This document shows positions 1-23,194 of a stretch of 64,000 bases of DNA, piece by piece (positions within the stretch are counted from its first letter, which is position 1; the number at the start of each line of letters is the position of its first letter). Under the pieces are notes generated by a model. It saw nothing but the letters and a program-made list of their open reading frames with translations. It was not told the DNA's origin and did no database searches. This DNA is from Candidatus Falkowbacteria bacterium (lineage in GTDB: Bacteria > Patescibacteriota > Patescibacteriia > Patescibacteriales > UBA12465), in assembly GCA_037137655.1 (NCBI GenBank), contig JBAXJX010000001.1:496194-560193 (forward strand). The letters run 5' to 3'. A program made the position numbers and the translations under genes.

Positions 1-1166
1 GCTATATCACCAGCCATAGTGTAACCACCACCAGCCTCAGAGCCGATAGTCATTTGAACATTAGATGTTGGCATAGAGGTATCACTAACACTTCTTATAA
101 CCGAACCATTAGATCTAATAGTCCAAGCAGCTGAATCCTTGGTGTATGATAATGAATAATAAGTATTTGTATTTATAAATGGATTCCCCAAAACCAAACT
201 CGAGTCAGTCCCAGCCCAACCAGCAATATCTGAACCACAACTATTAGCCCATCTTATGTGGCCAGATTGTGCTGCAGAGAAAATAGTCTCACTACCTGTT
301 TTAGCCGCACCAGTAGATACAACATAAAAAAATGTATATCCAGATGCTGCGGGAATACTACTGTTTAATAAAAGATAATTTGTACCGTCAAATCTAATTA
401 CCGGCTTACCATTTTTAGCATTACTAACAAACAATGGTTGGTTACCAGGTTGAGCATAATAACCGTTAGCACTTTGATCTGACCAAACACTAACTTTGTT
501 GCTGCCATCTTTAGTAACGCCAGCGTCAGCCATAAACCACAAAAGCATGTCTGGTATAGTTTTAGACACACAAGTACCATTAATACAATTTTTACCATTG
601 GCACAATTTGCACTTCGCGCACAATAAGTATCGCCCGAACAAGTAGCTGTAACTGGATTACATTGGTCACAGCAAGACAATAAAGCACTCGTACAAGAGC
701 AACTATTACTTGTTCCGGCACCAACACCGCCATAAGCAATACCAATTGGTGAAGCCGTATTTATACCAGCCTTAAGACTACCGGTCGGACCACTAAGACA
801 AAATGATAAAGTATAAGAATATCCGTCACTAGAAACATAGGAATAATTATTATTAGCACTAGAACAAGTTCCCTCTGGTGGCGTTGGCGCCGTTGGAATT
901 TTAGCCATATAGGTAGTGGTGCCATTAGTGGAAGTTGAAAATAAAGCTCCGGATGCAAACTCATCAACTAGTGGATAGCGCCCTTGATCGTTAAAAAATA
1001 ATTCGAGGGCAGTTTGAATTTGTTTCACGTCAGCCACGCGGCGCGCGTCACGGGCTTTGGCTCTGGCGTTTTGTAAAGCGACCACAGCAATCGTAGCTAA
1101 AATACCAATGATAGCAATAACAACCAAGAGCTCAATAAGAGTAAAGGCAGATTTTTTGTTTTTCAT
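1..1166 (-). CDS. Type IV pilin-like protein with Cys-rich linker and C-terminal LamG (Laminin_G_3)-like domain; the 3' end runs off the window
   Basis: Absent from the ORF track because its stop lies left of position 1. I checked the frame by hand (ATG at 1166..1164) and found no stop down to position 3. The N-terminus MKNKKSAFTLIELLVVIAIIGILATIAVVALQNARAKARDARRVADVKQIQTALELFFND is a prepilin-type motif. A linker carries 10 Cys in about 47 aa (SCSCTSALLSCCDQCNPVTATCSGDTYCARSANCANGKNCINGTC). The C-terminal part (LLWFMADAGV..VWSDQSANG..NGKPVIRFDG..MAGDIA) parallels the LamG parts of the 14938-18516 proteins. Confidence 0.8.
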   Translation of the reverse strand, partial: MKNKKSAFTLIELLVVIAIIGILATIAVVALQNARAKARDARRVADVKQIQTALELFFNDQGRYPLVDEFASGALFSTSTNGTTTYMAKIPTAPTPPEGTCSSANNNYSYVSSDGYSYTLSFCLSGPTGSLKAGINTASPIGIAYGGVGAGTSNSCSCTSALLSCCDQCNPVTATCSGDTYCARSANCANGKNCINGTCVSKTIPDMLLWFMADAGVTKDGSNKVSVWSDQSANGYYAQPGNQPLFVSNAKNGKPVIRFDGTNYLLLNSSIPAASGYTFFYVVSTGAAKTGSETIFSAAQSGHIRWANSCGSDIAGWAGTDSSLVLGNPFINTNTYYSLSYTKDSAAWTIRSNGSVIRSVSDTSMPTSNVQMTIGSEAGGGYTMAGDI

Positions 1167-8595: not shown

Positions 8596-9390
8596 CTAAA
8601 TTAAACCCTTCTTTTTAGCGCCAACAAAAATAGCTGAAGCTAATAATAGCAGACCGGAAACTAAAAGAATTAAAGCCGTGCTGTCTGTCGGAGCAACGCC
8701 CGTGTTTGGTAATTTTGGCACAGCAGTAGCAACTACCACAGTCGCTACAGCCAAATCTCTAACTGTCGTGCCATTAGCTTCACCACTAGCCACAACTGTG
8801 TTAGTTGTAGTCTTGGTAAGTTTGCTTTGGCAAGTATACACAAAGGTTTCACTTGGTTGAATTTTGTAATCATGATTAATATCACCCGAAACATAATTCA
8901 ACGGACTACATTTATCATCGGAGATTTTAATATTACTTAAATCCACTGTTCCAGGATTAGTAATTTTTTCAGTGTAAGTAACCATTCCACCGCCCGCTGG
9001 CAATTTTAATGGATTTGGAACTTTAGTCACATGAATAAGTGGTGGCACAAGAGGAGAGCCAACTACTACTGTCGCGCTCGCAATATCAACCGCGCTAATA
9101 CCGTTAGCCCAACCAGTGGCCACAACTGTATTAGTGTGAGTTTCATTAAGAGTTGTCGCACATTTATAAACCCAAGTTTCATTAACTTCTAATTTGGCAT
9201 TATTATTAATGTCACCAGAAGCTAAAGTTATCGGACTACAAGTATCACCAACCATAGTTATATTACTCATTGGAACTGTTCCAATATTGCGCACGGTATA
9301 AGTATAATTAACTAATCCAGGACCAGCTGGTAACGCTAAAGGGCTTGGCACTTTAACGACATCAATCAGTGGTGGAACTGGAGCGACCAC
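8596..9390 (-). CDS. LPXTG-anchored surface protein with two DUF11/CARDB-like repeats of about 100 aa; apparently 5'-truncated, with no signal peptide
   Basis: The C-terminus LPNTG + hydrophobic stretch + KKKG is a sortase sorting signal. There are two repeats of the form VKVPxPLxLPAGxGxVxYT...NTVVA(T/S)G. The frame is closed by TAA at 9432..9430 and has no ATG upstream. The only start is GTG at 9390, inside a repeat-boundary sequence. Confidence 0.6.
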   Translation of the reverse strand: MVAPVPPLIDVVKVPSPLALPAGPGLVNYTYTVRNIGTVPMSNITMVGDTCSPITLASGDINNNAKLEVNETWVYKCATTLNETHTNTVVATGWANGISAVDIASATVVVGSPLVPPLIHVTKVPNPLKLPAGGGMVTYTEKITNPGTVDLSNIKISDDKCSPLNYVSGDINHDYKIQPSETFVYTCQSKLTKTTTNTVVASGEANGTTVRDLAVATVVVATAVPKLPNTGVAPTDSTALILLVSGLLLLASAIFVGAKKKGLI

Positions 9391-11122: not shown

Positions 11123-12571
11123 TTATATATTTGCCTTCGCAAAATTTTGTTCGGGATTTAAAGATTTAGCCACTCGTAATAATTCCGCTTCGCCCATTTT
11201 TTTGCCAATCAACTGAACACCAATTGGCAAATTATTAATCAGGCCAGCTGGAACTACCACGGCTGGTAACCCAGCCAACGAAGCTGAGCTCACAAAAATA
11301 TCCTCTAAATACATTTGAATCGGATCATCAACTTTTTCCCCAATCTTAAAAGCGGCTGTTGGTGTCGTCGGCGCCAAAATAATATCCACCTGTCCAAAAA
11401 CTTTAGCAAAATCAAGTGCAATCATTTGACGCACTTTATTCGCCTTCTTGTAATAAGCATCATAATAACCAGCGCTCAAAGCATAAGTACCAAGCATGAT
11501 ACGACGTTTTGCTTCTGGACCAAATCCACCGCCACGATTCTTAGCATAAATCTCCGCTAAATTTTTCGCCGTCTCATCAAAATAACCATAACGCAAACCA
11601 TCGAGTCGCGCTAAATTAGAACTAATTTCACACGGGGTAATAATATAATAAGCCGGCACACTATATTTAGTATGCGGTAAAGAAACATTCATAATCTCCG
11701 CGCCCGCTGCTTTCAAAATTTCAGCCTGAGCCATAATTAAATCACGCACCTCCGATTTAATGCTGTCCGTAAAATATTCGGCCGGTAAACCAACCTTCAA
11801 ACCTTTCACTCCGTTATCTAAATTTTTTAAATAATCATCTGGCGCAACCGAACTGGCCGTGGCATCAAAATCATCTTGTCCAGCAATCGCTTGCAAAACC
11901 AGAGCCGCGTCTTCCACGGTTTTAGAAATCACCCCAACCACATCAGTTGAGGAAGTCATCGCCATTAAACCATGACGAGAAATTCTACCATAGCTTGGTT
12001 TTAATCCAACCACACCACAGAAACTCGCTGGTTGTCGAATTGAACCACCAGTGTCACTACTTAAACCGAATAGGCACATATCCGCCGCTACCGCCGCGCC
12101 ATTGCCACCAGAAGATCCGCCCGGTACACGTTCTAAGTCCCATGGATTTTTTGTTATTTGATAAGCAGAATTTTCCGTCGAAGCACCATGACCGAATTCA
12201 TCCATATTAGTTTTTCCTAATACTACAGCTCCAGCCGCATTCAATCTTTCAACTGCTGTCGCGTTATAGGGTGCAATATAATTTTTCAATATTTTGGAAG
12301 CCGCTGTCGCTTGAATTCCGGCAACAGTAATATTATCTTTCACTAAATACGGTATACCAAGCAAGTCGCCGGTTTCACCAGCCGCAATTCTCTTATCAGC
12401 TGCCGCTGCTTGCGCTAAAGCTTCTGCTTCACACACACAAAGACAAGCTTGAATTTTAGCATCCAAACTTTTTATTCTATCAAGACAAGCGGTAGTTAAT
12501 TCCACGGAAGTAATTTTTTTCTCATGCAATAATTTCGCCGCCGCACTAATTGTTAATTTATTTAATTCCAT
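11123..12571 (-). CDS. gatA: Glu/Asp-tRNA amidotransferase subunit A
   Basis: Amidase signature GGSSGGNGAAVAA and SDTGGSIRQPASFCG. 482 aa. It starts 1 nt after gatC. Confidence 0.92.
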   Translation of the reverse strand: MELNKLTISAAAKLLHEKKITSVELTTACLDRIKSLDAKIQACLCVCEAEALAQAAAADKRIAAGETGDLLGIPYLVKDNITVAGIQATAASKILKNYIAPYNATAVERLNAAGAVVLGKTNMDEFGHGASTENSAYQITKNPWDLERVPGGSSGGNGAAVAADMCLFGLSSDTGGSIRQPASFCGVVGLKPSYGRISRHGLMAMTSSTDVVGVISKTVEDAALVLQAIAGQDDFDATASSVAPDDYLKNLDNGVKGLKVGLPAEYFTDSIKSEVRDLIMAQAEILKAAGAEIMNVSLPHTKYSVPAYYIITPCEISSNLARLDGLRYGYFDETAKNLAEIYAKNRGGGFGPEAKRRIMLGTYALSAGYYDAYYKKANKVRQMIALDFAKVFGQVDIILAPTTPTAAFKIGEKVDDPIQMYLEDIFVSSASLAGLPAVVVPAGLINNLPIGVQLIGKKMGEAELLRVAKSLNPEQNFAKANI

Positions 12572-12572
12572 A

Positions 12573-12863
12573 TTATTCTAAAACGCGATGAACCTTAATT
12601 TGTCCACCATCAAGTTCGCTGGCCTGCGCCAAAGCATTGTTACGTTCTGCCTCATTCCAATCAATCGCTTCATCAGCGCGAAATTCACTCGGGCTGTCGG
12701 AAACATTATTAATAGCATCCACTTCAGAAGTATCGACGTCTTGCAATTGGCCGACGTAATCCAAAATCTTCGGCAACTGTGCACCGTATTTTTCCAGTTC
12801 CGCCGGAGTAAGCTCCAGGCGCGCCAAATTGGCAATGTGTTTTATATCTTCGTTATTAATCAT
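12573..12863 (-). CDS. gatC: Glu/Asp-tRNA amidotransferase subunit C
   Basis: 96 aa, with IKHIANLARLELTPAELEKY..LPKILDYVGQL typical of GatC. It sits immediately upstream of gatA. Confidence 0.88.
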   Translation of the reverse strand: MINNEDIKHIANLARLELTPAELEKYGAQLPKILDYVGQLQDVDTSEVDAINNVSDSPSEFRADEAIDWNEAERNNALAQASELDGGQIKVHRVLE

Positions 12864-12864
12864 A

Positions 12865-14934
12865 TTATTTAATAAGTTTTAAAAATTCCCCTTCGGATAA
12901 AATATTGACGCCTAATTGTTTAGCTTTCTCATATTTACTGCCTGGTTCAGCACCGACAATTACATAATCAGTTTTAGAGCTAACCGATTCGGCCATTTTT
13001 CCTCCCAATTCTCTAATTTTAGCCTTTGCCTCATCTCTTGTCAAACTAAGAAGTGAGCCGGTGAGCACAAAACTTTTGCCATTAACATTATCATTTTTTT
13101 GTTTAGGCGCGGCGAGCGGTTTTAAGCTAAGGCCATTTTTAGTAAACTTATCCAAAAGATGTAAATTATGTTCGTCATGAAAATAATCATAAATACTTTT
13201 GGCCACGATCGGACCAAAGTCGTTAATCATTTCCAAATCTTCCAAACTCATCGCACTAACTTTTTGTACTAAATCTTGAATACTTTTTATTTTACCGAGT
13301 AAGGTTGCCAAAGCCAAAGCTGACTCTTCGCCAATATGACGAATACCAAGTGCATAAATAAAGCGCGCTAAACTTATTTCGTGACGGTCGGCGATAGCGG
13401 CAATTAAATTGTCCGCCGACTTTTCAGCAAAACGCTCCAGATTTGATAAATCAATTTTTTGTAAACTATAAAAATCAGCCGCATCCTTAATCAGACCAAC
13501 ATTAAAAAGTTGTTCAATAATTTTTGGTCCCAAGCCATCAATATCTACGGCTGTTTTAGAAACGAAGTGTTCTAAGTTGCGTAAGGAAACGGCGTAACAT
13601 TTTTTATTAGCACAACGATAAGCCACCTCACCTTCCACTTGGCGCACGACACTCTCACAAATCGGACAAGTTTTAGGCACGACAATTTTTTGTTCCTGAC
13701 CGGTACGCAAATTTACGAGCGCTTCCACCACCTTCGGAATCACATCACCGGCGCGTTCAATAATAATCGTATCACCGATTTTAATTCCGAGGCGTTCAAT
13801 CTCATCCATATTATGTAAAGTAGCTCGACTAATCGTCGCGCCACCAACATTCACCGGTTCTAACACCGCTGTTGGTGTTAAAGTCCCAGTGCGCCCAACT
13901 TGCCAAATAAGATCAATAATCTTAGTGGTGGCCTGTTCAGCAGCAAATTTATAAGCCATAGCAAAGCGCGGTGCCTTACCAATAATACCTAATTCCTCCC
14001 ATAATGCCAGGTTATTTATCTTTACAACAACACCATCAATATTAAAATCCAATTTATCCCGTTGCTTTTCCCAATGACGGTGAAATTCAAAAACTTGTGC
14101 AAGATCTTTGCACAGCCGATTATGTTTGACGATTTTAAAACCCAAGTCATCGGCTAATTTATCAGCGTCAACCCGAGTTTTAACTTTGGCGCTTAATTCT
14201 TCGGACACCGAAACTGTTGGTAAATCATATTCATAAAACTCTAGTTTTCGTTCCGCCATTACCAATGAATCCAATTGACGAATCGATCCGGCGGCCGCAT
14301 TCCGTGTGTTGGCCAATTCCGGTTTACCTAATTTGGCGTATTTTTTATTCAAGGCCGCGAGTGTCGATTTTTTCATAATCGCTTCCCCGCGCACTTCAAA
14401 TATCGGCGCCGAAATTTTTAGCTTAGCAAGTGGCACATCAATTGATAAAGGAATACTTTCAATCGTTTTAATATTTTGCGTCACATCTTCCCCAACGCGA
14501 CCATCACCACGAGTTGAGGCTTGTACTAGCAAACCGTTTTCGTATTTTAAATTAATTGCCAGGCCGTCTAATTTTAATTCGCAATAATATTCTAAACCGG
14601 TAAGTGAAATTCCATTAGCTGTCGCATAATTAAAAACCCGCGCTTCCCAGTCACGCATATCTTGTTCGGAAAAAGCATCGAAGAGTGACAACATTCTTTT
14701 GGAATGTTCCACTTTAACAAATTTATCAAGAGGTGCTCCACCGACTCTTTGTGTTGGTGAGTCTGGTGTAATTAAATCCGGATACTCTTGCTCCAAGCGA
14801 AAAAGCTCGAGCTTTAAACTATCAAGCGCCGCTTCGGACATCGTTTCTTTGTCCAGCACATGATAATTATACCGATGTTTATCGATTTCCAAACGTAATT
14901 TTTCTATTCGGTTTTGAGCTTCTGATTTAGTCAT
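12865..14934 (-). CDS. ligA: NAD-dependent DNA ligase
   Basis: Adenylation motif CELKLDGLA, a four-Cys zinc finger (CPICES..CANKKC), HhH region and C-terminal BRCT (FVLTGSL). 689 aa. Confidence 0.95.
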   Translation of the reverse strand: MTKSEAQNRIEKLRLEIDKHRYNYHVLDKETMSEAALDSLKLELFRLEQEYPDLITPDSPTQRVGGAPLDKFVKVEHSKRMLSLFDAFSEQDMRDWEARVFNYATANGISLTGLEYYCELKLDGLAINLKYENGLLVQASTRGDGRVGEDVTQNIKTIESIPLSIDVPLAKLKISAPIFEVRGEAIMKKSTLAALNKKYAKLGKPELANTRNAAAGSIRQLDSLVMAERKLEFYEYDLPTVSVSEELSAKVKTRVDADKLADDLGFKIVKHNRLCKDLAQVFEFHRHWEKQRDKLDFNIDGVVVKINNLALWEELGIIGKAPRFAMAYKFAAEQATTKIIDLIWQVGRTGTLTPTAVLEPVNVGGATISRATLHNMDEIERLGIKIGDTIIIERAGDVIPKVVEALVNLRTGQEQKIVVPKTCPICESVVRQVEGEVAYRCANKKCYAVSLRNLEHFVSKTAVDIDGLGPKIIEQLFNVGLIKDAADFYSLQKIDLSNLERFAEKSADNLIAAIADRHEISLARFIYALGIRHIGEESALALATLLGKIKSIQDLVQKVSAMSLEDLEMINDFGPIVAKSIYDYFHDEHNLHLLDKFTKNGLSLKPLAAPKQKNDNVNGKSFVLTGSLLSLTRDEAKAKIRELGGKMAESVSSKTDYVIVGAEPGSKYEKAKQLGVNILSEGEFLKLIK

Positions 14935-14937
14935 ATT

Positions 14938-16071
14938 TTAGTAAAGCGCATATTTAGCATTTAAATAAGTTTCCACTTGTTGGCGTTCAGTATCACTTAA
15001 GGCGCGGTTGTACATAATAATTTCAGCGATGTCGCCATTAAGGAAATAACCACCAATTGGAGGAACAACACCACTGTCATTATTATAAGCTCCAACTAAA
15101 AAATTATATGGAGAAATCATTGAATAATTTGAAGTAATAGACGTTACACCCTTACTAATTGAATTAATAAAAACCGTATTAGACGGACTAGTGCTCGTGC
15201 TATCAACTATCATTGTCATTAAATTAGACTGCCCCGAAGAAACAGATGGAAACCACATAGTGCGAGTTGCGTTATCAAGATAAAGAAAACCAAAATTATT
15301 ACCAGCCTCATATAAAATTGAATACCTTAAAGGGGCTCCGCCATACAAAGATTTTGAAATAAAAGCACCTTGGCTTGTATTAGACTTTCCCACAATGAAT
15401 AAACTGGCACCGCTTGATTGAATATTACCAACACCAGAACCGCCATCCAAATAATCATTATTACCATCAAAGCGCACCACTGGATTACCATTTAAAGCCC
15501 CAGGAATTAACAATGGCTGATTAAATTGACTGTTCTGAATTACATTATTACCGTTATTACTTTGATCATTCCATGAAGTAACATAATTACCGGTCGCGGT
15601 CGCCACGCCAGAGCCGGCATTTAACCAGATAGCCAAACCAGATAAAGTACTAGGAGTAAATGTTTGAGTGGAGCTTGGAGTTGATGTTGGAATTACGACC
15701 GGAACGGTATATGAAAATTCTAAATCACGGTGCACTTTTTTGTAATTACCTGAGGCAACAAAAGAATATGGTGAAGAGGCTGATAAACAATCAATTAAAT
15801 AACTAGCATTATTCAATAAGGTGCTAGTGCCAAAAATATTCCCTCCCGGACAAGCTGTAAAAATATTAGGGTTAGTTTTTATTTCATAACGCGTTTTCTC
15901 TTCCCCAGCTTCTGCCGCATAGTAAGCACGGAAAGATTGAGCTTGGCTATCACCGGCTTTAACCGCAATCATCGTCATATAACCAACCGCAAAAGTAATC
16001 ATAAAAACTCCCGACAAAATGAAGAGAGTAATCAAGAGGATGCTGGCTGGTTTTTGGGATTTACTTTTCAT
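14938..16071 (-). CDS. PilX/GspK-like minor pilin fused to a C-terminal LamG-like domain (paralog A)
   Basis: Hydrophobic N-terminus without Glu5 (KPASILLITLFILSGVFMITF). PilX_N-like SQAQSFRAYYAAEAGEE. Pro/Ser/Thr linker. LamG-like part runs WLNAGSG..SWNDQSNNGNN..NGNPVVRFDG..LNGDIAEIIMYNRALSDTERQQVETYLNAKYALY. Confidence 0.7.
   Translation of the reverse strand: MKSKSQKPASILLITLFILSGVFMITFAVGYMTMIAVKAGDSQAQSFRAYYAAEAGEEKTRYEIKTNPNIFTACPGGNIFGTSTLLNNASYLIDCLSASSPYSFVASGNYKKVHRDLEFSYTVPVVIPTSTPSSTQTFTPSTLSGLAIWLNAGSGVATATGNYVTSWNDQSNNGNNVIQNSQFNQPLLIPGALNGNPVVRFDGNNDYLDGGSGVGNIQSSGASLFIVGKSNTSQGAFISKSLYGGAPLRYSILYEAGNNFGFLYLDNATRTMWFPSVSSGQSNLMTMIVDSTSTSPSNTVFINSISKGVTSITSNYSMISPYNFLVGAYNNDSGVVPPIGGYFLNGDIAEIIMYNRALSDTERQQVETYLNAKYALY
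15545..16032 (-). repeat. Copy 1 of a 488-bp block shared by the two tandem LamG-pilin genes, identical by eye
   Basis: Compared by eye with 16693..17180 (offset 1148). I saw no mismatch. The flanks on both sides diverge immediately. Confidence 0.85.
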
Positions 16072-16076
16072 TAGAA

Positions 16077-17228
16077 TTAATAAATTGCGTATTTGGTATT
16101 TAAATAAGATTCGACTTGCCCGCGTTCAGTGTCGCTTAAAGCGCGGTTGTACATAATAATTTCAGCGATGTCGCCATTAAGAAAATAACCACCAATTGGA
16201 GCGCCGCCGCCGTTACTAGAATTATAAGCGCCCACTAAAAAATCATAAGGTGAGGTCATTGAATAGGTTGAGCTTAAAGCTGAAGTTCCAGCTAAGGCAG
16301 AATTAATATAAAAATGGTTAACTGAATTTGGCTTATCAGCTATTGCCGCCATTAAATCCATATTACCATACGAGTGAGATGGCATATTTACTGAATGATA
16401 AGTGCTATTGTTATCTTCTACATATAAAAAAGAAAAACCGCCTTGCCATTGCGGGTCATACTCTACGGAATATCTAGCATCAGCAGCAGCGAAAGCCGAC
16501 TTTGAAACAAAAGCACCTTGATTTGTATGAGACTTCCCCACAATAAAAAAACTGGCACCGGTTAACGGAATATTACCAATGCTAGAACCACCATTTAAAT
16601 AATCATTATTACCATCAAAGCGCACCACCGGATTGCCATTTAAAGCTCCAGAAACTAGTATTGGTTGATTAAATTGACTACCCTGAGTTACGTTATTACC
16701 GTTATTACTTTGATCATTCCATGAAGTAACATAATTACCGGTCGCGGTCGCCACGCCAGAGCCGGCATTTAACCAGATAGCCAAACCAGATAAAGTACTA
16801 GGAGTAAATGTTTGAGTGGAGCTTGGAGTTGATGTTGGAATTACGACCGGAACGGTATATGAAAATTCTAAATCACGGTGCACTTTTTTGTAATTACCTG
16901 AGGCAACAAAAGAATATGGTGAAGAGGCTGATAAACAATCAATTAAATAACTAGCATTATTCAATAAGGTGCTAGTGCCAAAAATATTCCCTCCCGGACA
17001 AGCTGTAAAAATATTAGGGTTAGTTTTTATTTCATAACGCGTTTTCTCTTCCCCAGCTTCTGCCGCATAGTAAGCACGGAAAGATTGAGCTTGGCTATCA
17101 CCGGCTTTAACCGCAATCATCGTCATATAACCAACCGCAAAAGTAATCATAAAAACTCCCGACAAAATGAAGAGAGTAATTAAAAGAATGCTAGCTGGTT
17201 TTTGGGATTTAAATTTTATCATGAACAA
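16077..17228 (-). CDS. PilX/GspK-like minor pilin fused to a C-terminal LamG-like domain (paralog B)
   Basis: About 175 N-terminal residues are identical to paralog A. The central and C-terminal LamG region is divergent. The C-terminal motif LNGDIAEIIMYNRALSDTERGQVESYLNTKYAIY is conserved. Confidence 0.7.
   Translation of the reverse strand: MFMIKFKSQKPASILLITLFILSGVFMITFAVGYMTMIAVKAGDSQAQSFRAYYAAEAGEEKTRYEIKTNPNIFTACPGGNIFGTSTLLNNASYLIDCLSASSPYSFVASGNYKKVHRDLEFSYTVPVVIPTSTPSSTQTFTPSTLSGLAIWLNAGSGVATATGNYVTSWNDQSNNGNNVTQGSQFNQPILVSGALNGNPVVRFDGNNDYLNGGSSIGNIPLTGASFFIVGKSHTNQGAFVSKSAFAAADARYSVEYDPQWQGGFSFLYVEDNNSTYHSVNMPSHSYGNMDLMAAIADKPNSVNHFYINSALAGTSALSSTYSMTSPYDFLVGAYNSSNGGGAPIGGYFLNGDIAEIIMYNRALSDTERGQVESYLNTKYAIY
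16693..17180 (-). repeat. Copy 2 of the 488-bp identical block
   Basis: See 15545..16032. Confidence 0.85.
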
Positions 17229-17229
17229 A

Positions 17230-18516
17230 TTAATAAATTGAATATTTGGTGTTCAAATAAGATTCTACTTGTTGGCGTTCAGTATCACTTAGTGGTCGGT
17301 TGTAAATAATTATTTCAGCAATATCACCATTCAAATAAGTTTCGGTCACTGGTGGCAAAGAACCACCAGCATTAGCTCCAGCACCGATTAAGAAATTATA
17401 ACCATTAGTCGGATCACCAGAGCTCAAGCTCCAAGAACCAATATTAGCGCCATTGGCATAGAGATTATTAGACAGATCGGTTCTATTCCAAATAACTGAT
17501 AACTGTTCAAAGCTACCACTAGCCCGATTTACGCCATGTGAAGTGTCGCCGTTATAATTTGAATATAAGACTCCACCCCAATAATTAATCCACCATCTAA
17601 TTCCAGATCCACCATAAAGAAACTTGCCCACAAGCATACCGGTTGTGTTTGTTTTATCAACTATAAAAACAGTTTCGCCATTAGCCCCAATTTGATGTTC
17701 TGTCGTTCCGCCATCAAGATAACTACTACCATTAAATCTAATTACCGGTTTACCATTTAAAACACTTTGCACTAATACCGGTCGGCTTGGTCCGTCAGAT
17801 TGAGTAACACCAGTACTGGCACCTTGATTATTCCAGGCCGTCACATAATCACCCGTTGTAGTCACCACACCAGCATCCGCTTTTAACCATAAATCTAGAC
17901 TAGCTAAATCTGATGGTGCAAAAGCTTGAGTCGTAGTTGGAGTAGTAGTGGCGACTGGCGCGACATAAATCTCCCGCGGTGAAATCGTGGTTTGAATATT
18001 ATAAGCTGGAATAGTTTGATCAGCTTGGGATAAAACTTGAACATTAACCGTTACGATTGGCTGCACAGCCGCCGAGTCATCCATAGTAAAATTTATAGCG
18101 GCAATATTTATCGCCCCAGAACTAATAAAAAATGCTTCACTGTCACGTGCAATCTCCAAACGATTTACACCATTATCGTCTAGCGCGGTAAAATAAGCCA
18201 CACACTGGCCTTTTTGATTTTGAAAATAAAGTTCCGTCGAAGAAGCATTGCTCGCAAACATGTGATCCGGCGCTACACCGCAAACATCCGCGGCTGTCGA
18301 ATTACGCACCGCGCCCTTCACTTCACGCGAAAAAATTTCAACAAAATATTTTATATCTTCACGGGTCGCTGAATCATCCGAAGTAGTTCTTTGATTGGTA
18401 ATGACATTACGAAAAATTGAAGAGACAGCCAAAATGATCACCGCAAAAATAGAGATGGCCACCAAGATCTCAATCAAAGTAAATCCGCTTTTTTTATTTG
18501 TATTATTTCCAATCAT
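17230..18516 (-). CDS. PilW/GspJ-like pseudopilin fused to a C-terminal LamG-like domain
   Basis: Start trimmed to the ATG at 18516, giving MIGNNTNKKSGFTLIEILVAISIFAVIIL, a prepilin motif. This start overlaps the upstream stop by 14 nt (ATGATTGGAAATAA). The C-terminal half reads LWLKADAGV..AWNNQG..NGKPVIRFNG..LNGDIAEIIIYNRPLSDTERQQVESYLNTKYSIY. Confidence 0.75.
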   Translation of the reverse strand: MIGNNTNKKSGFTLIEILVAISIFAVIILAVSSIFRNVITNQRTTSDDSATREDIKYFVEIFSREVKGAVRNSTAADVCGVAPDHMFASNASSTELYFQNQKGQCVAYFTALDDNGVNRLEIARDSEAFFISSGAINIAAINFTMDDSAAVQPIVTVNVQVLSQADQTIPAYNIQTTISPREIYVAPVATTTPTTTQAFAPSDLASLDLWLKADAGVVTTTGDYVTAWNNQGASTGVTQSDGPSRPVLVQSVLNGKPVIRFNGSSYLDGGTTEHQIGANGETVFIVDKTNTTGMLVGKFLYGGSGIRWWINYWGGVLYSNYNGDTSHGVNRASGSFEQLSVIWNRTDLSNNLYANGANIGSWSLSSGDPTNGYNFLIGAGANAGGSLPPVTETYLNGDIAEIIIYNRPLSDTERQQVESYLNTKYSIY

Positions 18517-19015
18517 ATAATTCTGTTTGAAGTTCAAAGCGTCTAGTATCACCGCGATCATTCCACTCCACCAAGCAAGTAACGGTTGAGGAAACACTGC
18601 CATTGGCCGTGATAGTAATTAAACGATGAAAAATAGTATCCGTCGAACTCGCGTCATATAAATATTGATTTGTCGTACTAGAAAACTGTAAAAGCGTTTC
18701 ATCAATTCCGGCCACGCTCTGGGGTTGGAAATGAGCAAAATCAACTTTATATTTTGTACCGTTAACATCGCCAGTAATATATTGATTCCATGCTGCCCCG
18801 TTGCGCCAATTAGTATCACGCACATTGCGAATTAATTCCAAGCCTTCTTGGGCTAAATCATAAGCAACTAAAGTATCACGATTAGAATTCTGGGTGCGTA
18901 AACTCGCCGCCATTAAATTAACAACTCCAACCAAACCAACTGACACAATAATTAAAACCACAATAACCTCAAGCAAGGAAAAGGCCGGTAAATTTTTTTT
19001 ATATTTCTTTATCAT
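18503..19015 (-). CDS. PilV/GspI-like minor pseudopilin
   Basis: MIKKYKKNLPAFSLLEVIVVLIIVSVGLVGV is a prepilin-type N-terminus. 170 aa. Confidence 0.7.
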   Translation of the reverse strand: MIKKYKKNLPAFSLLEVIVVLIIVSVGLVGVVNLMAASLRTQNSNRDTLVAYDLAQEGLELIRNVRDTNWRNGAAWNQYITGDVNGTKYKVDFAHFQPQSVAGIDETLLQFSSTTNQYLYDASSTDTIFHRLITITANGSVSSTVTCLVEWNDRGDTRRFELQTELYDWK

Positions 19016-19021
19016 AATTTT

Positions 19022-19579
19022 TTACTGACAAGAATTAACTGTCTCAAAAAAACCAAAAGCATTAATTTTCAATCCATCCACGCGATTAGTGCTTGATTCA
19101 GCGATTTCTACACAAGCCGTGCTTGAAGAATTAACCCCACTAACAATCGAAGCGAGCGGTGTACTAGTGCCATGAAAAACCACATCCAAAGTATTACCTA
19201 AATTGATTTGCGAAAAATGTAAACCGTTACCAAGACTAAAGGCTTGGGCGCCAGAATTTACTATTGCCTCACCACTATCATACACACCATTACTGTTCAT
19301 ATCAGCAAACATCAAATAAGTGGAACTGGACACGTCCAAATGAATTCCCCAGCCGCCGCTAGCAATAGCGCCGCCGTAACGTAAGCCACTTAAAAAATTG
19401 CTCCGTGCCAAGTTAAAATTAGCCGATAAAATTCGCATCCCACCGTCTAAATTAGACTTTTTTTCCGCCCCAGAATAACCCGCTAACGACATGGAAATAA
19501 CCACACCAATAATTGCGACGGTGACCATTAATTCAATTAAGGTAAAGGCTTTAATTTTATTCCGTAAAAATATTTTCAT
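19022..19579 (-). CDS. FimT/GspH-like minor pseudopilin
   Basis: NKIKAFTLIELMVTVAIIGVVISMSLAGY is a prepilin-type N-terminus. 185 aa. It is the first gene of the pseudopilin run. Confidence 0.7.
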   Translation of the reverse strand: MKIFLRNKIKAFTLIELMVTVAIIGVVISMSLAGYSGAEKKSNLDGGMRILSANFNLARSNFLSGLRYGGAIASGGWGIHLDVSSSTYLMFADMNSNGVYDSGEAIVNSGAQAFSLGNGLHFSQINLGNTLDVVFHGTSTPLASIVSGVNSSSTACVEIAESSTNRVDGLKINAFGFFETVNSCQ

Positions 19580-19581
19580 AC

Positions 19582-19977
19582 TTAAATTATAGCATACTTT
19601 TTTAAAAATTTCTCTTCCTCCGCAATCATGGCCAGGCGTAACTTTTCGGTGTGATCTTCCCGACCAATTAGATGAAATAAACCATGAACCAGAATAAAAA
19701 TAAACTCGGATTCAATTCCCTTTTTTAACTCTTTGGCTTGGCGCTTAATTTGCGCATAGCTAATCACAATTTCATTAAGATCGGAAAAGGACAAGACATC
19801 AGTTGTCTTATCAAAACCTCGATAAGTTAAATTCATCTTCCGCATTACCGTATCACCCACCACCGCCACTGATACATCAAAGTTTTTCAACTTATAAGCT
19901 TTGATAAAAATCTCGACAATGCTAATAATTTTTTTGGAGTTTATTTTGTTTTTTGTTGTATTGTTAATCTCAATCAT
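19582..19977 (-). CDS. ybeY: rRNA maturation endoribonuclease YbeY
   Basis: Metal-binding motif HGLFHLIGREDH. 131 aa. Confidence 0.85.
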   Translation of the reverse strand: MIEINNTTKNKINSKKIISIVEIFIKAYKLKNFDVSVAVVGDTVMRKMNLTYRGFDKTTDVLSFSDLNEIVISYAQIKRQAKELKKGIESEFIFILVHGLFHLIGREDHTEKLRLAMIAEEEKFLKKYAII

Positions 19978-19984
19978 ATAAGTC

Positions 19985-20836
19985 CTAAATTAAGCGACGC
20001 GCGCGGCGCAAAATGTTATAAATTTTATACCAAAATGGTGACAAAATGTAATCAAAGGTACCAGGATAATTTACTACTTCCCCACCAAAACCCTTCTTAA
20101 AGCGCGTCACACCCGGCCATTTAATTTCACTAATACCGTAAAAATCGTAATATTTATAGCCATATTTTTTAGCCTCAGCAATAAGATGCCATTGCAAAAG
20201 ATAAGGTGCCATAACACTGCGATCATTATTATCAGAAGCACCATGCATATAAGTTACGCCATTACCATAAAAACAAAAAATACCCGCCGCAATAATTCGA
20301 CCATCATATTCTGCTAAAAATAATTTAATAAAATTAGGATCAAAATTTAACATGGTCCGATAATAATCATCATCATGTCCACGAAAAGTATCGCGCTCAG
20401 TGGTAATTTTTAATAAGCACAGAAACTCATCAACCCGATTATTGTCGGTAAATATTTTAACCCCTTTCTTCTCTGCTAAACGAATATTATATCTAGTTTT
20501 CGGATGCATCGCCGCTAACAATTCAGCTTCACTTTTGACTAAATCCAAAATTATCGTTTGACTTGGTTGGACATCAATTGTTTTTACCACGCTGCCATTC
20601 GCCGGTAATTTAAAGTCGCTCACAGCATCAAAACGCACAAAAATATAATCCTTAAACTCAGCTGGTAGCGCTTGAATTAAGTTATCCACACTGGAAATGC
20701 GTGGACCATAGAGATATTTTTTGAAGCGCAAAATATTTTTTTCCACAAAAAAACCAGCCGGAAAAACTTTGGTGTTATAACCGGATTTTTTCTGGAATTG
20801 GCACCAGAGATTAGACTGTAAAAATTGATCAATCAT
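19985..20836 (-). CDS. FemAB-family peptidoglycan interpeptide-bridge aminoacyltransferase
   Basis: FLQSNLWCQFQKKSG, KTRYNIRLAEKKG, MAPYLLQWHLIAEAKKYGYKYYDFYG and RFKKGFGG. Confidence 0.8.
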   Translation of the reverse strand: MIDQFLQSNLWCQFQKKSGYNTKVFPAGFFVEKNILRFKKYLYGPRISSVDNLIQALPAEFKDYIFVRFDAVSDFKLPANGSVVKTIDVQPSQTIILDLVKSEAELLAAMHPKTRYNIRLAEKKGVKIFTDNNRVDEFLCLLKITTERDTFRGHDDDYYRTMLNFDPNFIKLFLAEYDGRIIAAGIFCFYGNGVTYMHGASDNNDRSVMAPYLLQWHLIAEAKKYGYKYYDFYGISEIKWPGVTRFKKGFGGEVVNYPGTFDYILSPFWYKIYNILRRARRLI

Positions 20837-20852
20837 ATTAATTCCATTATAA

Positions 20853-20880
20853 CAAAAAAATCCCTCTGATAACAGAGGGA
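20853..20880 (-). terminator. Terminator of the distal pilin gene
   Basis: Minus strand reads TCCCTCTG-TTAT-CAGAGGGA followed by TTTTTTT. Confidence 0.7.
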
Positions 20881-20894
20881 TTTTAGAAAGAGAT

Positions 20895-21299
20895 TTAGCG
20901 AAGTGATGAGTTAGTTGCAGTATTTAAACCTTCTGGAATTGAACCAACTGGTCCTTCTAAGAAATATTGTAAAGTGTAAGTATTTATATCATTTGAAGTG
21001 TAAGTATATTCAACATGAGCGGCTGGTGGAGTCGGTGGAGTTGGGATGATAGACATATAAACATTTGAACCGTAAGCGATAGTTGGACTAGTAGCAATCT
21101 CATTAGTAGTTGGATAACGTTGCGCATCATTAAAAAATAATTCCAGCGCAGTTTGCATTTGCTTCACATCAGCCACACGTTTCGCGTCACGTGATTTAGC
21201 ACGAGCATTGTTTAAAGCGATAACTGACAAAGTTGCAAGTAAACCGATAATCGCAATAACGATTAATAACTCGATTAAAGTAAAGGCTTTTTTCTTCAT
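20895..21299 (-). CDS. Type IV pilin (second copy)
   Basis: MKKKAFTLIELLIVIAIIGLLATLSVIALNNARAKSRDAKRVADVKQMQTALELFFND. 134 aa. No obvious SD sequence upstream. Confidence 0.85.
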   Translation of the reverse strand: MKKKAFTLIELLIVIAIIGLLATLSVIALNNARAKSRDAKRVADVKQMQTALELFFNDAQRYPTTNEIATSPTIAYGSNVYMSIIPTPPTPPAAHVEYTYTSNDINTYTLQYFLEGPVGSIPEGLNTATNSSLR

Positions 21300-21403
21300 A
21301 CATTTTAAAAATTAGAGAAAATAATAAATTATTTATATTATATAATTAGCAATAACTTAATTATAACATATAAATAAAAAATGGCCAAGACCTCCAGCTA
21401 ACA

Positions 21404-21436
21404 AAAAAATCTCCCGACAAAGCCGGGAGATTTTTT
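21404..21436. terminator. Terminator after the first pilin gene
   Basis: TCTCCCG-ACAAAGC-CGGGAGA, flanked by an A-run and a T-run. Confidence 0.7.
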
Positions 21437-21445
21437 AAGATAGAA

Positions 21446-21889
21446 CTATTGTAGAGAAGCGTTCGTCGCGGTGTGTAAACCGGCTGGAATCGCGCCTACT
21501 GGTCCTTCTAATAAGTATTGAATAGTGTAACTTACACCGTTAGTATCAATGTTATAAGAGTATTGAGTTGGACCTGTTGGAGGTGTTGGTGGTTGTGGAA
21601 CGATAGCCATATAAACAGCTTGAGTGCTGGTTACGGCAGTTAAACGACAACCATTAGCAGCTGCTGCTACTGTACAAGCGCCTGCGGCAGTACTAGTTGG
21701 ATATGTTTGCATATCGTTGAAGTACAATTCTAAGGCAGTTTGTATTTGTTTGATATCAGCTACGCGACGCGCGTCACGTGATTTGGCACGAGCGTTGTTT
21801 AAAGCAACAACAGCTAATGTGGCCAAAAGACCGATAATAGCGATAACTACTAATAACTCGATTAAGGTAAAGGCTTTTTTATTTTTCAT
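21446..21889 (-). CDS. Type IV pilin (probable major pilin)
   Basis: MKNKKAFTLIELLVVIAIIGLLATLAVVALNNARAKSRDARRVADIKQIQTALELYFND. 147 aa. It has its own strong SD and its own terminator. Confidence 0.85.
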   Translation of the reverse strand: MKNKKAFTLIELLVVIAIIGLLATLAVVALNNARAKSRDARRVADIKQIQTALELYFNDMQTYPTSTAAGACTVAAAANGCRLTAVTSTQAVYMAIVPQPPTPPTGPTQYSYNIDTNGVSYTIQYLLEGPVGAIPAGLHTATNASLQ

Positions 21890-21893
21890 AAAT

Positions 21894-21904
21894 TCACCTC
21901 CTCC
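21894..21904 (-). promoter_or_regulatory. Strong Shine-Dalgarno sequence of the major pilin gene
   Basis: Minus strand reads GGAGGAGGTGA, then ATTT, then ATG. Confidence 0.7.
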
Positions 21905-21985
21905 AGTCTATTAGTAATCACGAACTTAATCCTAGGAATTAAAAGCATGATCATAAGATAATTATATAAATTTATAATTTATAGA

Positions 21986-23194
21986 TTAAAAACTAAGCGC
22001 CACGCTATACATCGGCATGATAATCGCGGCTGCCATAATTGCCACAGCCACACCCATCACCAACATTATAGCCGGTTCCAAGATAACATTCAAATTCGCT
22101 AATTTATCATTCAACTCGCGGGTATAGAAATCAGAAATTTTACCAAGCACTGCATCCAAATTACCAGTTTTTTCACCGATACTTAACATTTGGGGAATCA
22201 TTTTCGGCATATAAGGACTATCTGCAAACACGTAAGAAATTGAATAACCTTCATTAACTGCTTCTAATGTTTTTAAAATTAATTTTTGGTAAACCACACT
22301 CCGCACAACATCAGAAGACACCTCCAAAGCGCGAGTTACTGTTACACCACCATAAAGCAAAGTACTGAAAGAACGACAAAAACGAACCAAATAAATCAGA
22401 CGATACAACTTACCAATAATCGGAATTTTTAATTTAATAATATCCAAAGTTTCTTTGCCGGCCGGAGTTCTAGCAGCAATCCGAATAGCTACAAAGGCCG
22501 CCACTAGAGCGATTATAATATAAACTAAATAAGCCTGTAAAAAATCAACTACTGCGATAACAATCACCGTCGGCAATGGTAAGGCCGTGCCAGATTCCTC
22601 AATAATTGTAGTTAATTGTGGCATCACAAAATACATCATAATAAAGCCAACAACTACCAAGCCGATAGAAACTATCGCCGGGTAAACCATGGCGCCCTTA
22701 AATTTACCAATCAAATCATAATCTTTTTCCATTTCATCCGCTAAATACAATAGAACTTCATCTAATTTACCCGAGGTCTCACCGGCCTTAACAACGTTAA
22801 CGTAAAATTCAGAAAAAGCTTTACCGCCCCGGCGCTTAAAAGATTCGGACAACAACGCGCCGCCATCAACGTCGATAGCAACGTTAGAAATTATATTTTT
22901 TAACTTCAAATTTTCAGTTTGTTCTAAAACAGTTTGAAGTGATTCAAGCACGCTGACATCCGACGAGATCATTAAAGAAAACTCGCGGGAAAAAATCACT
23001 AAATCTTTCGGCTTAACACCTTGGATAAAAAACATGACACGGGTATCAGCGCGATCAGAAATATCATTTGCCCAAACCAAACGTAAACCCTTATGGGCTA
23101 AGTTGCGAGCAACACCGTCAGTATTAAAAGCCACGGCTCTTCCATGAACCGCACGATCCTTACTATTTAATGCTTTATAGCTATATAGTGGCAT
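21986..23194 (-). CDS. pilC: Type IV pilus platform protein PilC (GspF family)
   Basis: 402 aa with a duplicated T2SS-F domain architecture and three TM segments. It is adjacent to pilB. Confidence 0.85.
   Translation of the reverse strand: MPLYSYKALNSKDRAVHGRAVAFNTDGVARNLAHKGLRLVWANDISDRADTRVMFFIQGVKPKDLVIFSREFSLMISSDVSVLESLQTVLEQTENLKLKNIISNVAIDVDGGALLSESFKRRGGKAFSEFYVNVVKAGETSGKLDEVLLYLADEMEKDYDLIGKFKGAMVYPAIVSIGLVVVGFIMMYFVMPQLTTIIEESGTALPLPTVIVIAVVDFLQAYLVYIIIALVAAFVAIRIAARTPAGKETLDIIKLKIPIIGKLYRLIYLVRFCRSFSTLLYGGVTVTRALEVSSDVVRSVVYQKLILKTLEAVNEGYSISYVFADSPYMPKMIPQMLSIGEKTGNLDAVLGKISDFYTRELNDKLANLNVILEPAIMLVMGVAVAIMAAAIIMPMYSVALSF

Follow-up and report, generated by a model that had tools for sequence, protein, structure and literature searches.

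Paralogous genes in bacteria can be homogenised by gene conversion, as in tufA/tufB of Salmonella and in the adhesin genes babA/babB and sabA/sabB of Helicobacter pylori. In the pilE/pilS system of Neisseria, which has silent 5'-truncated donors and a guanine-quadruplex (G4) element, the variable part is moved into a single expression locus. Here we describe two tandem paralogues, designated A and B, that lie in a 64,000-nucleotide (nt) stretch of DNA from Candidatus Falkowbacteria (the window; coordinates are positions in it, and A, B and the neighbouring gene C are read on its minus strand). Protein A (NCBI MEI7452077.1) comes from a metagenome-assembled genome, where it is encoded on a 965-kb contig, and B is a tandem paralogue of the same architecture with 78% amino acid (aa) identity overall. 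Both genes are complete open reading frames (ORFs) in a single operon, separated by a 5-nt spacer. As in other bacterial cases of paralogue conversion, for which general treatments of interlocus gene conversion and concerted evolution are available (PMC3966223, PMC2720389), part of the two genes is identical, other parts show old divergence, and the edges of the identical tract are intragenic. A and B resemble the bab and sab genes, surface adhesin genes with one conserved and one receptor-binding half, although here the adhesin role is predicted. They differ from tuf, bab and sab in being tandem copies 1148 bp apart in one operon of a candidate phyla radiation bacterium, and from bab and sab in that homogenisation affects the half that anchors the protein in the pilus, together with the beginning of the lectin domain, with specificity switching at most putative. 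Conversion among pilin-related sequences, with shared conserved segments flanking variable ones, is also a likeness to pilE/pilS, whereas here the copies are complete and co-transcribed, the transferred part would be the conserved half, and there is no G4 motif in 14000..19500.

On the protein side, the closest described systems are lectin-bearing minor pilins. PilC of Streptococcus sanguinis is an experimentally characterised modular pilin with a glycan-binding concanavalin A (ConA)-like module (PDB 7oa7, 7oa8; PMC9934059). A and B are like it in combining a pilin-type N-terminal moiety with a grafted C-terminal ConA/LamG-like β-sandwich, in being encoded among minor pilins, and in the proposed location at the pilus tip. 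Sequence identity to PilC is, however, about 12%, and PilC possesses both a class III signal peptide of the canonical type and an additional Ig-like module. A and B are without the motif, their N-terminal moiety is PilX-like, and glycan binding is only predicted for them. In Saccharibacteria (TM7x), PilX1 and PilX2 are minor pilins with lectin-like or β-propeller C-terminal domains (PMC11623550). The features in common are membership of the Patescibacteria, accessory C-terminal domains resembling L-type lectins and a proposed role as host-binding tip proteins, PilX1 and PilX2 being the largest minor pilins of their loci; the class is different (Falkowbacteria here), and the likeness is one of domain description. 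A term search of the text of that paper found no tandem duplication or conversion. Patescibacteria need to attach to host cells, and the strongest candidates at present for a role in recognising the host are type IV pili with lectin-like minor pilins (PMC11623550). Interlocus conversion of adhesin paralogues and lectin-bearing modular minor pilins are both already known; what is added here is evidence for exchange of LamG cores between J- and K-type minor-pilin scaffolds, and a patch whose sequence depends on the assembly.

Identical block and divergence of its flanks

Base-by-base comparison at an offset of 1148 showed that 15545..16032 in A and 16693..17180 in B are identical over 488 nt with zero mismatches, as the preliminary description of this DNA had claimed. 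The second-longest run in this comparison is 32 nt, and the block is the sole exact match of at least 55 nt between the two genes. It takes in the greater part of the N-terminal module, runs through the linker and includes ~40 residues at the start of the LamG domain, as far as NNGNN. By the Nei-Gojobori method it contains 0 synonymous differences over 112.7 synonymous sites, giving a synonymous substitution rate (dS) of 0.

Immediately 5' of the block the two genes are diverged. Their start regions differ (MKSKSQ in A, MIKFKSQ in B), and over the first 13 codons the proportion of synonymous sites that differ (pS) is 0.52. The four synonymous differences noticed in the preliminary description (gcc/gct, atc/att, ctc/ctt and ttg/tta) are real and fall at 16045, 16039, 16036 and 16033. 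Their placement was not correct: they occupy codons 9–13 of A, within the 13 nt adjoining the block, and are not among the 20 nt that open the coding sequence.

On the 3' side, the 200 codons that follow the block show pS 0.53, dS 0.93 and a nonsynonymous rate (dN) of 0.28 between A and B (Nei-Gojobori). Synonymous divergence amounts to about 0.9 on either side of the block. The drop in identity reported previously takes place in two steps, first to an intermediate layer with 84% identity and then to a LamG core in which nucleotide identity is ~55–60% and pS is 0.56–0.75. Since pS in the layer (0.34–0.38) lies below that of the core, the layer reads as an older, longer conversion tract, which we consider likely; an earlier and longer conversion event would survive as just such a zone of 84% identity 3' of the block. 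Similarity does rise again near the 3' end, as had been noted, and reaches 88% over the last 125 nt. Because pS in the last 27 codons is 0.56, this rise reflects conservation at the protein level of a family-wide motif (GDIAEII.YN...ER..VE.YL..KY, near-invariant throughout the LamG subfamily) and not conversion.

The preliminary description had further proposed that conversion keeps the pilus-incorporation module homogeneous while the LamG surface diversifies. This picture is only partly supported, in that the tract crosses the module boundary and includes the first ~40 LamG residues. Homogenisation may have an adaptive value, and nothing that we tested indicates selection for module homogeneity. 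Diversifying selection on the LamG domain finds no support in the pairwise A versus B comparison, where dN/dS is below 1 (~0.3 after the block) and dS in the core is saturated, so that the ratio is uninformative.

Probable gene conversion between A and B

We interpret the identical block as the product of recent interlocus gene conversion between A and B, that is, of non-reciprocal homologous recombination between old paralogues whose 5' halves have recently been homogenised. This reading is, in our judgement, very probable, in agreement with the earlier proposal of recent conversion, and it is carried by the contrast between a dS of 0 in the block and pS values of 0.52 and 0.53 in its flanks, by the internal position of the tract ends, and by a mosaic pattern of informative sites. 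The longest run of identical codons reaches 162, whereas no run exceeded 39 in any of 100,000 shuffles of the codon columns. Outside the block, 71% of the codons that encode identical amino acids are also identical as codons, a rate at which identity of every one of the 157 eligible codons in the block would have a probability of ~1e-23; for a 326-nt sub-block considered alone the figure is 4.5e-16. Both ends of the tract lie inside homologous sequence that had already diverged, within 13 codons at the 5' side and within LamG sequence at the 3' side.

The mosaic pattern emerges from comparison with a related locus, L002, whose J gene (L2_447, 447 aa) encodes a PilW-like protein and whose K gene (L2_365, 365 aa) is the orthologue of A in its N-terminal module. 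The N module of A is 100% identical to that of B and shares 72% aa and 77% nt identity with that of L2_365 (dS 0.88). The LamG core of A, on the other hand, groups at informative sites with its counterpart in the PilW-like gene of L002; compared with residues 270–447 of L2_447 (178 codons) it has 82% nt identity, dS 0.64 and dN 0.11, and it is much farther from the core of B (dN 0.28–0.6). Site patterns among A, B and L2_447 switch from those shared by A and B to those shared by A and L2_447 near residue 209 of A, at about 15445 in the window. To the left of this breakpoint 80 sites unite A with B and 5 unite A with L2_447, and to the right the counts are 32 and 113; the maximum chi-square is 111, a value reached in 0 of 20,000 permutations. 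Paralogues that are identical where orthologues have diverged, and that are older than speciation elsewhere, represent the classical signature of concerted evolution by gene conversion, and on this reading the LamG cores of A and B split before this lineage parted from its closest sampled relative.

The comparison with L002 also bears on an explanation without conversion, in which A was made recently by copying the 5' half of B ahead of an incoming LamG core, as a partial duplication or fusion, and the block is simply young. The core of A does belong to another cassette lineage than the core of B, being found on a PilW-like scaffold in L002, and two K-type genes are present in none of the relatives, both of which fit such an origin. 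However, the start region and first 13 codons of A differ from those of B, with four synonymous differences in 13 nt and pS 0.52, so that A already owned a K-type 5' end and a fresh partial duplication is unlikely. Identity begins inside this older, diverged end, which a fresh copy would have taken in. An earlier shared history is likewise indicated by the layer of 84% identity that follows the block on its 3' side. We consider this alternative improbable.

The simplest mechanism for gene conversion here would be recombination of the ordinary RecA type, acting on direct repeats that lie near each other (the copies are 1148 bp apart), with the 3' limit set by rising divergence. The tract probably stops where the LamG cores are too diverged for a heteroduplex to be sustained, which would give a sharp 3' edge without dedicated machinery.

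Selection acting at the nucleotide level (on an embedded RNA, a regulatory site or an overlapping gene) or programmed variation of the kind seen in diversity-generating retroelements or Neisseria-like cassettes could in principle also keep the two copies identical. Nothing was found in favour of such explanations. Both genes are complete ORFs within an operon, and it is the conserved half, not the variable one, that the tract covers, which argues against them. No Rfam matches with E up to 0.1 were obtained in 12000..22000, and the locus of the block shows no excess of promoter- or terminator-like sites. Neisseria-like silent cassettes were rejected on the grounds that both copies are complete ORFs and that the G4 motif is absent. 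A diversity-generating retroelement was rejected on the basis of the substitutions in a patch described below, which comprise C/T, A/G, T/C, G/A and C/G changes and are not adenine-specific, with neither version carrying A (or T) at all sites. We regard this group of explanations as very improbable indeed.

Several points weigh against gene conversion or limit the way in which it can be framed. The mosaic analysis uses three taxa only, and part of the mosaic could belong to L2_447 (C-like over its first ~230 residues) rather than to A. All of the sequences come from metagenome assemblies, at least two of them made with SPAdes as judged by their NODE_ names, and the block is not one fixed sequence across assemblies but contains a mirrored patch of 12 single-nucleotide polymorphisms (SNPs) where A and B may really differ. 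The duplication of the K gene is found in none of the relatives, and a JGI scan yielded six syntenic relatives without a duplicated K gene. Neither A nor B matches the N-terminal methylation motif (N_methyl, PF07963/TIGR02532) even at E up to 10, the sequence being QKPASILLITLF, and neither gives a direct match to PilX_N (PF14341). The AlphaFold2 (AF2) model of the N module is of low confidence, with a predicted local distance difference test score (pLDDT) of ~40 for residues 30–130. In scans of genome contigs, the LamG alignment retrieved only distant LamG proteins in many phyla and no identical tandem blocks, and the N-module alignment found no relative.

A mirrored patch within the block

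Comparison of the window with other assemblies of the same clone revealed that the block exists in two versions. Contig L001 (ERZ4223250, NODE_1, 569 kb, coverage 40.8) differs from the window at 24 positions in 21,134 nt, and all of these lie in a 91-nt patch, 12 in A and 12 in B at the same offsets; throughout the block, the L001 copies of A and B match each other exactly as well. All 24 differences recur in L007 (ERZ4224321, 37.7 kb, coverage 6.5), which has a single additional SNP, at 11162. Over 48 kb, the window shows 100% identity to Logan contigs of SRR12676969 and SRR12676970, and a further contig, L027, has 2 SNPs in 14.5 kb; outside the patch, assemblies differ by 0 to ~1e-4 per nt. 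The 12 changes consist of 11 transitions and 1 transversion, 10 of them at third codon positions; 9 are synonymous and the remaining three give P124L, T139A and I148M. With 13% divergence and a transition:transversion ratio of 11:1, the patch resembles the adjacent intermediate layer between A and B (16%, 27:5). Inside the block it is flanked by 71 and 326 identical nt. The zero-difference tract of the preliminary description is therefore confirmed in the assembly, but it depends on short-read assemblies in which a 91-nt patch has a second version.

One explanation is that the exact block is partly a product of the assembler, the true A and B differing by the 12 patch substitutions, with one copy carrying version v1 and the other version v2. 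A de Bruijn graph with k of 71 or less would see a bubble between the 71-nt and 326-nt identical stretches and thread one arm through both copies, and different assemblies would keep different arms. This accounts for the finding that 12 sites, occurring twice at matching offsets, are the sole differences between the window and L001, with L007 alike apart from its one SNP, at a background of 0 to ~1e-4 differences per nt elsewhere. The divergence pattern of the patch is like that of the neighbouring A/B layer, as expected of an unconverted remnant. L001 and L007 are SPAdes assemblies, and metaSPAdes by design masks such bulges aggressively before repeats are resolved on the consensus graph (PMC5411777). 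On the other side, the collapse presupposes that the final k did not exceed 71, and true v1/v1 and v2/v2 haplotypes would account for the three assemblies just as well. Since it requires no additional biological event, we rate a collapsed bubble as somewhat likelier than a real polymorphism, and lean slightly towards it overall.

The latter explanation, which we consider possible but do not favour, is that near-clonal populations are truly either v1/v1 or v2/v2 and that conversion between A and B is so frequent that it shows up even between populations with almost no other SNPs. A equals B within each of the three assemblies while the assemblies differ from each other, and the layered tracts of differing age are what repeated conversion predicts. 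However, at least two extra events (import or ancestral heterogeneity, followed by independent conversions) would have to be accommodated against a background of 0–3 SNPs in 21–35 kb. Neither version has a donor within the window: no donor of v2 was found there, C being too diverged and the block having no other match. In addition, the three amino acid changes are in the linker and are unlikely targets of selection.

The signal of conversion is independent of how the patch is read. Even if the bubble was collapsed, the 326-nt and 71-nt tracts remain identical, and because the 326-nt sub-block by itself has P = 4.5e-16, conversion stands under either reading with at least 326 nt of identity secure. 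For short-read metagenome assemblies in general, the locus illustrates that partly converted tandem paralogues can look over-identical, and that such a site can mimic strain polymorphism between assemblies.

It is unlikely that the duplication itself is an assembly artefact. A mis-join of two strain alleles into a tandem array was rejected, since the C–B and B–A junctions are distinct sequences, three assemblies (with contigs of 965 kb, 569 kb and 37.7 kb) agree on the arrangement, and there is no shared k-mer of at least 55 nt besides the block that could make a false join. A Logan contig built at k=31 (L029) ends at 15031, exactly where a stretch of 41 nt common to the two genes (15002..15042) predicts; this break implies several continuations in the graph of raw reads, as expected if both paralogue 3' ends are present.

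The N-terminal module

The preliminary description spoke of LamG-pilin paralogues, but A and B, which lack the methylation motif, are not canonical pilins; C and the two minor pilins of 170 and 185 aa encoded upstream of it do match the motif. A word-indexed protein search with the 132-aa N module gave no match and missed even a protein that is 99% identical (P0001); an index of this kind seems to overlook queries that are short and hydrophobic. An exhaustive phmmer search with residues 1–125 of A returned 182 clusters, many of them stand-alone proteins of 115–145 aa and others of 300–750 aa. Of 60 homologues scanned against Pfam, 10 match PilX_N (PF14341; best E = 1.1e-6), and the longer ones carry Lcl_C (14), Fib_succ_major (9), Laminin_G_3 (4), GLUG (4) and other domains. 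Taken together, the stand-alone homologues, the PilX_N matches and the varied C-termini suggest that the N-terminal half is an autonomous PilX-like module onto which diverse C-terminal domains have been grafted. A and B themselves are PilX-like by gene position and transitive homology only.

In the AF2 model of A, residues 9–42 form a helix (pLDDT 83 for residues 11–20 and 71 for residues 21–30), and the β part at residues 43–130 has a pLDDT of ~40. The module would consist of a transmembrane helix and a small globular part, linked via a Thr/Pro/Ser stretch to the lectin domain.

The lectin domain and its relatives

Profile scores for Laminin_G_3 (PF13385) are 18.9 bits for A and 26.6 bits for B, both under the gathering threshold of 27.6 bits, and 29.8 bits for C, which is above it. 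The AF2 model of A has pLDDT >90 over residues 140–377 and forms a β-sandwich that ends in a helix. A Foldseek search of the PDB with this model gave 159 matches with E up to 1e-3. The top match is a cyanophage tailspike, ranks 2 and 3 are S. sanguinis PilC (7oa8 and 7oa7), and these are followed by the Hc-N domains of tetanus and botulinum neurotoxins (TeNT/BoNT) and by sialidase lectin domains. A is accordingly predicted to carry a lectin fold of the ConA-like superfamily, a β-sandwich jelly roll. We infer that A and B are probably located at the pilus tip, where they would bind a host-cell glycan.

Related loci differ in the domains attached at the J and K positions. In L002–L004, the J gene (447 aa) carries LamG and the K gene (365 aa) carries Fib_succ_major; in L005, LamG is found on both; in L030, K is a bare module; and the J gene of L031 is bare, its K gene being extended by a non-LamG sequence. 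The corresponding segments (L030:3787-5386, L031:2061-3642 and L002:2880-3977) thus encode no C-terminal domain, a non-LamG domain or Fib_succ_major, and Lcl_C, GLUG, dockerin and fn3 also occur in the wider module family. On these comparisons, the J/K position is a hot spot of domain grafting. The suggestion in the preliminary description that the locus serves to expand adhesin specificity is plausible and fits the very variable C-terminal domains found at this position in relatives. Variation at the K position (no domain, LamG or Fib_succ_major, and Lcl_C and others in the wider family) provides concrete candidate determinants of host specificity, and the locus shows how tip proteins may evolve, with a constant anchoring module kept uniform by recombination and old, exchangeable lectin cores.

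The LamG core of A has dS 0.64 to its counterpart in L002 (L002:2357-2890), which is below the values for ligA (1.41), ybeY (1.25) and the minor pilins (1.24–1.66), gatC (0.69) being the exception. The low dS of the core could mean that this cassette was exchanged laterally at a later time; in L002 it sits on a PilW-like scaffold. A broader proposal, which we regard as speculative and rather doubtful, is that the locus is an actively recombining cassette system that retargets the pilus tip of an episymbiont, LamG cores moving between PilW- and PilX-type scaffolds and between lineages, and conversion between A and B being frequent enough for near-clonal populations to differ by a doubled patch. 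In that proposal the LamG cores are bracketed by the conserved linker and LamG start on one side and by the conserved C-terminal motif on the other, and the comparison on which it draws is the core dS of 0.64 against 1.2–1.8 for flanking housekeeping genes.

Gene order and neighbouring features

The positions of the features described here are compiled in Table 1. Reading with the operon, the minor-pilin genes are ordered GspH-like, PilV/GspI-like, GspJ-like (C), B and A, followed by ligA, whose start lies 3 nt past the stop codon of A. The GspH/FimU-like gene is the start of an H-I-J-K set, and the H-I-J-K-ligA order is kept in eight related loci. Given this order of H-, I- and J-like genes followed by B and A, the latter two hold the K/PilX position of a type IV pilus minor-pilin set. 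C, which is also called as a gene in L001, carries a class III signal motif (GFTLIE) together with a LamG domain of its own, shares 44% aa identity with A and B, and matches N_methyl, gspJ and IV_pilin_GFxxxE profiles in addition to Laminin_G_3.

Table 1. Positions of genes, domains and sequence segments in the 64,000-nt window
Feature	Position	Strand	Description
Gene A	14938..16071	-	377 aa; ORF; PilX-like N module, Thr/Pro/Ser linker and LamG/ConA-like domain
Gene A domain limits	aa 1-~122; aa ~136-377		N module; LamG/ConA-like lectin domain
Gene B	16077..17222	-	381 aa from ATG 17222; ORF extends to TTG 17228
Gene C	17230..18516	-	428 aa from ATG 18516; ORF extends to 18603; PilW/GspJ-like minor pilin
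Block copy in A	15545..16032	-	codons 14-175 plus 2 nt
Block copy in B	16693..17180	-	zero mismatch to the copy in A
Diverged 5' end of A	16033..16071	-	first 13 codons; pS 0.52 to B 17181..17222
Patch in A	15616..15706	-	91 nt; 12 substitutions relative to L001 and L007
Patch in B	16764..16854	-	91 nt; 12 substitutions as in A, offsets alike
Intermediate layer	15350..15544	-	84% A/B identity; 32 of 195 positions differ; transitions:transversions 27:5; pS 0.34-0.38; B counterpart 16498..16692
Diverged LamG core of A	15082..15349	-	aa ~241-330; proportion of nonsynonymous differences (pN) 0.39-0.43 to B; B counterpart 16221..16497
Conserved 3' end of A	14938..15062	-	GDIAEII.YNR.LSDTER..VE.YLN.KY; 88% to B (16077..16201), 74% to C (17230..17354)
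PilV/GspI-like minor pilin	18503..19015	-	170 aa; TIGR02523 type_IV_pilV E = 1.4e-8
GspH/FimU-like minor pilin	19022..19579	-	185 aa; TIGR01708 gspH E = 9.4e-8 and N_methyl
Interleaved minor-pilin and housekeeping genes	12573..20836	-	tiny spacers
Terminator-like hairpin	20857..20884		strong; after the 134-aa pilin gene
Small pilin	20895..21299	-	134 aa
Small pilin	21446..21889	-	147 aa
LamG-bearing pilin	2..1166	-	cut by the window start
CLIPPER_2-like gene	8596..9390	-	264 aa; L001:16694-17301

Upstream on the same strand are genes for PilM, three further proteins, a PilB-type ATPase and a PilC-type platform protein, and next in line come two small pilins, a strong terminator, FemAB and YbeY, and then the GspH-like pilin. 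The minor-pilin genes are interleaved with housekeeping genes (femAB-like, ybeY, four or five pilins, ligA, and gatC/gatA), and the synteny of J-like gene, K-like gene and ligA is seen in most of the related loci that are long enough to show it. In L002, the gatA orthologue is called as two ORFs (L002:6358-7799), one of 283 aa without a Pfam match and a 203-aa Amidase, which suggests a frameshift or an assembly error.

The two tandem small pilins share 78% nt identity over their first ~196 nt and are probably major-pilin paralogues. A further LamG-bearing pilin at the edge of the window has a PilA-like N-terminus, MKNKKSAFTLIELLVVIAIIG, with an N_methyl match; this N-terminus closely resembles that of the 134-aa pilin, and a Cys-rich linker connects it to a LamG-type domain. 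Counting it as a fourth LamG pilin, LamG domains are found on three pilin scaffolds in one genome (PilA-, PilW- and PilX-like). The CLIPPER_2-like gene contains an internal direct repeat of ~278 nt with 65% identity.

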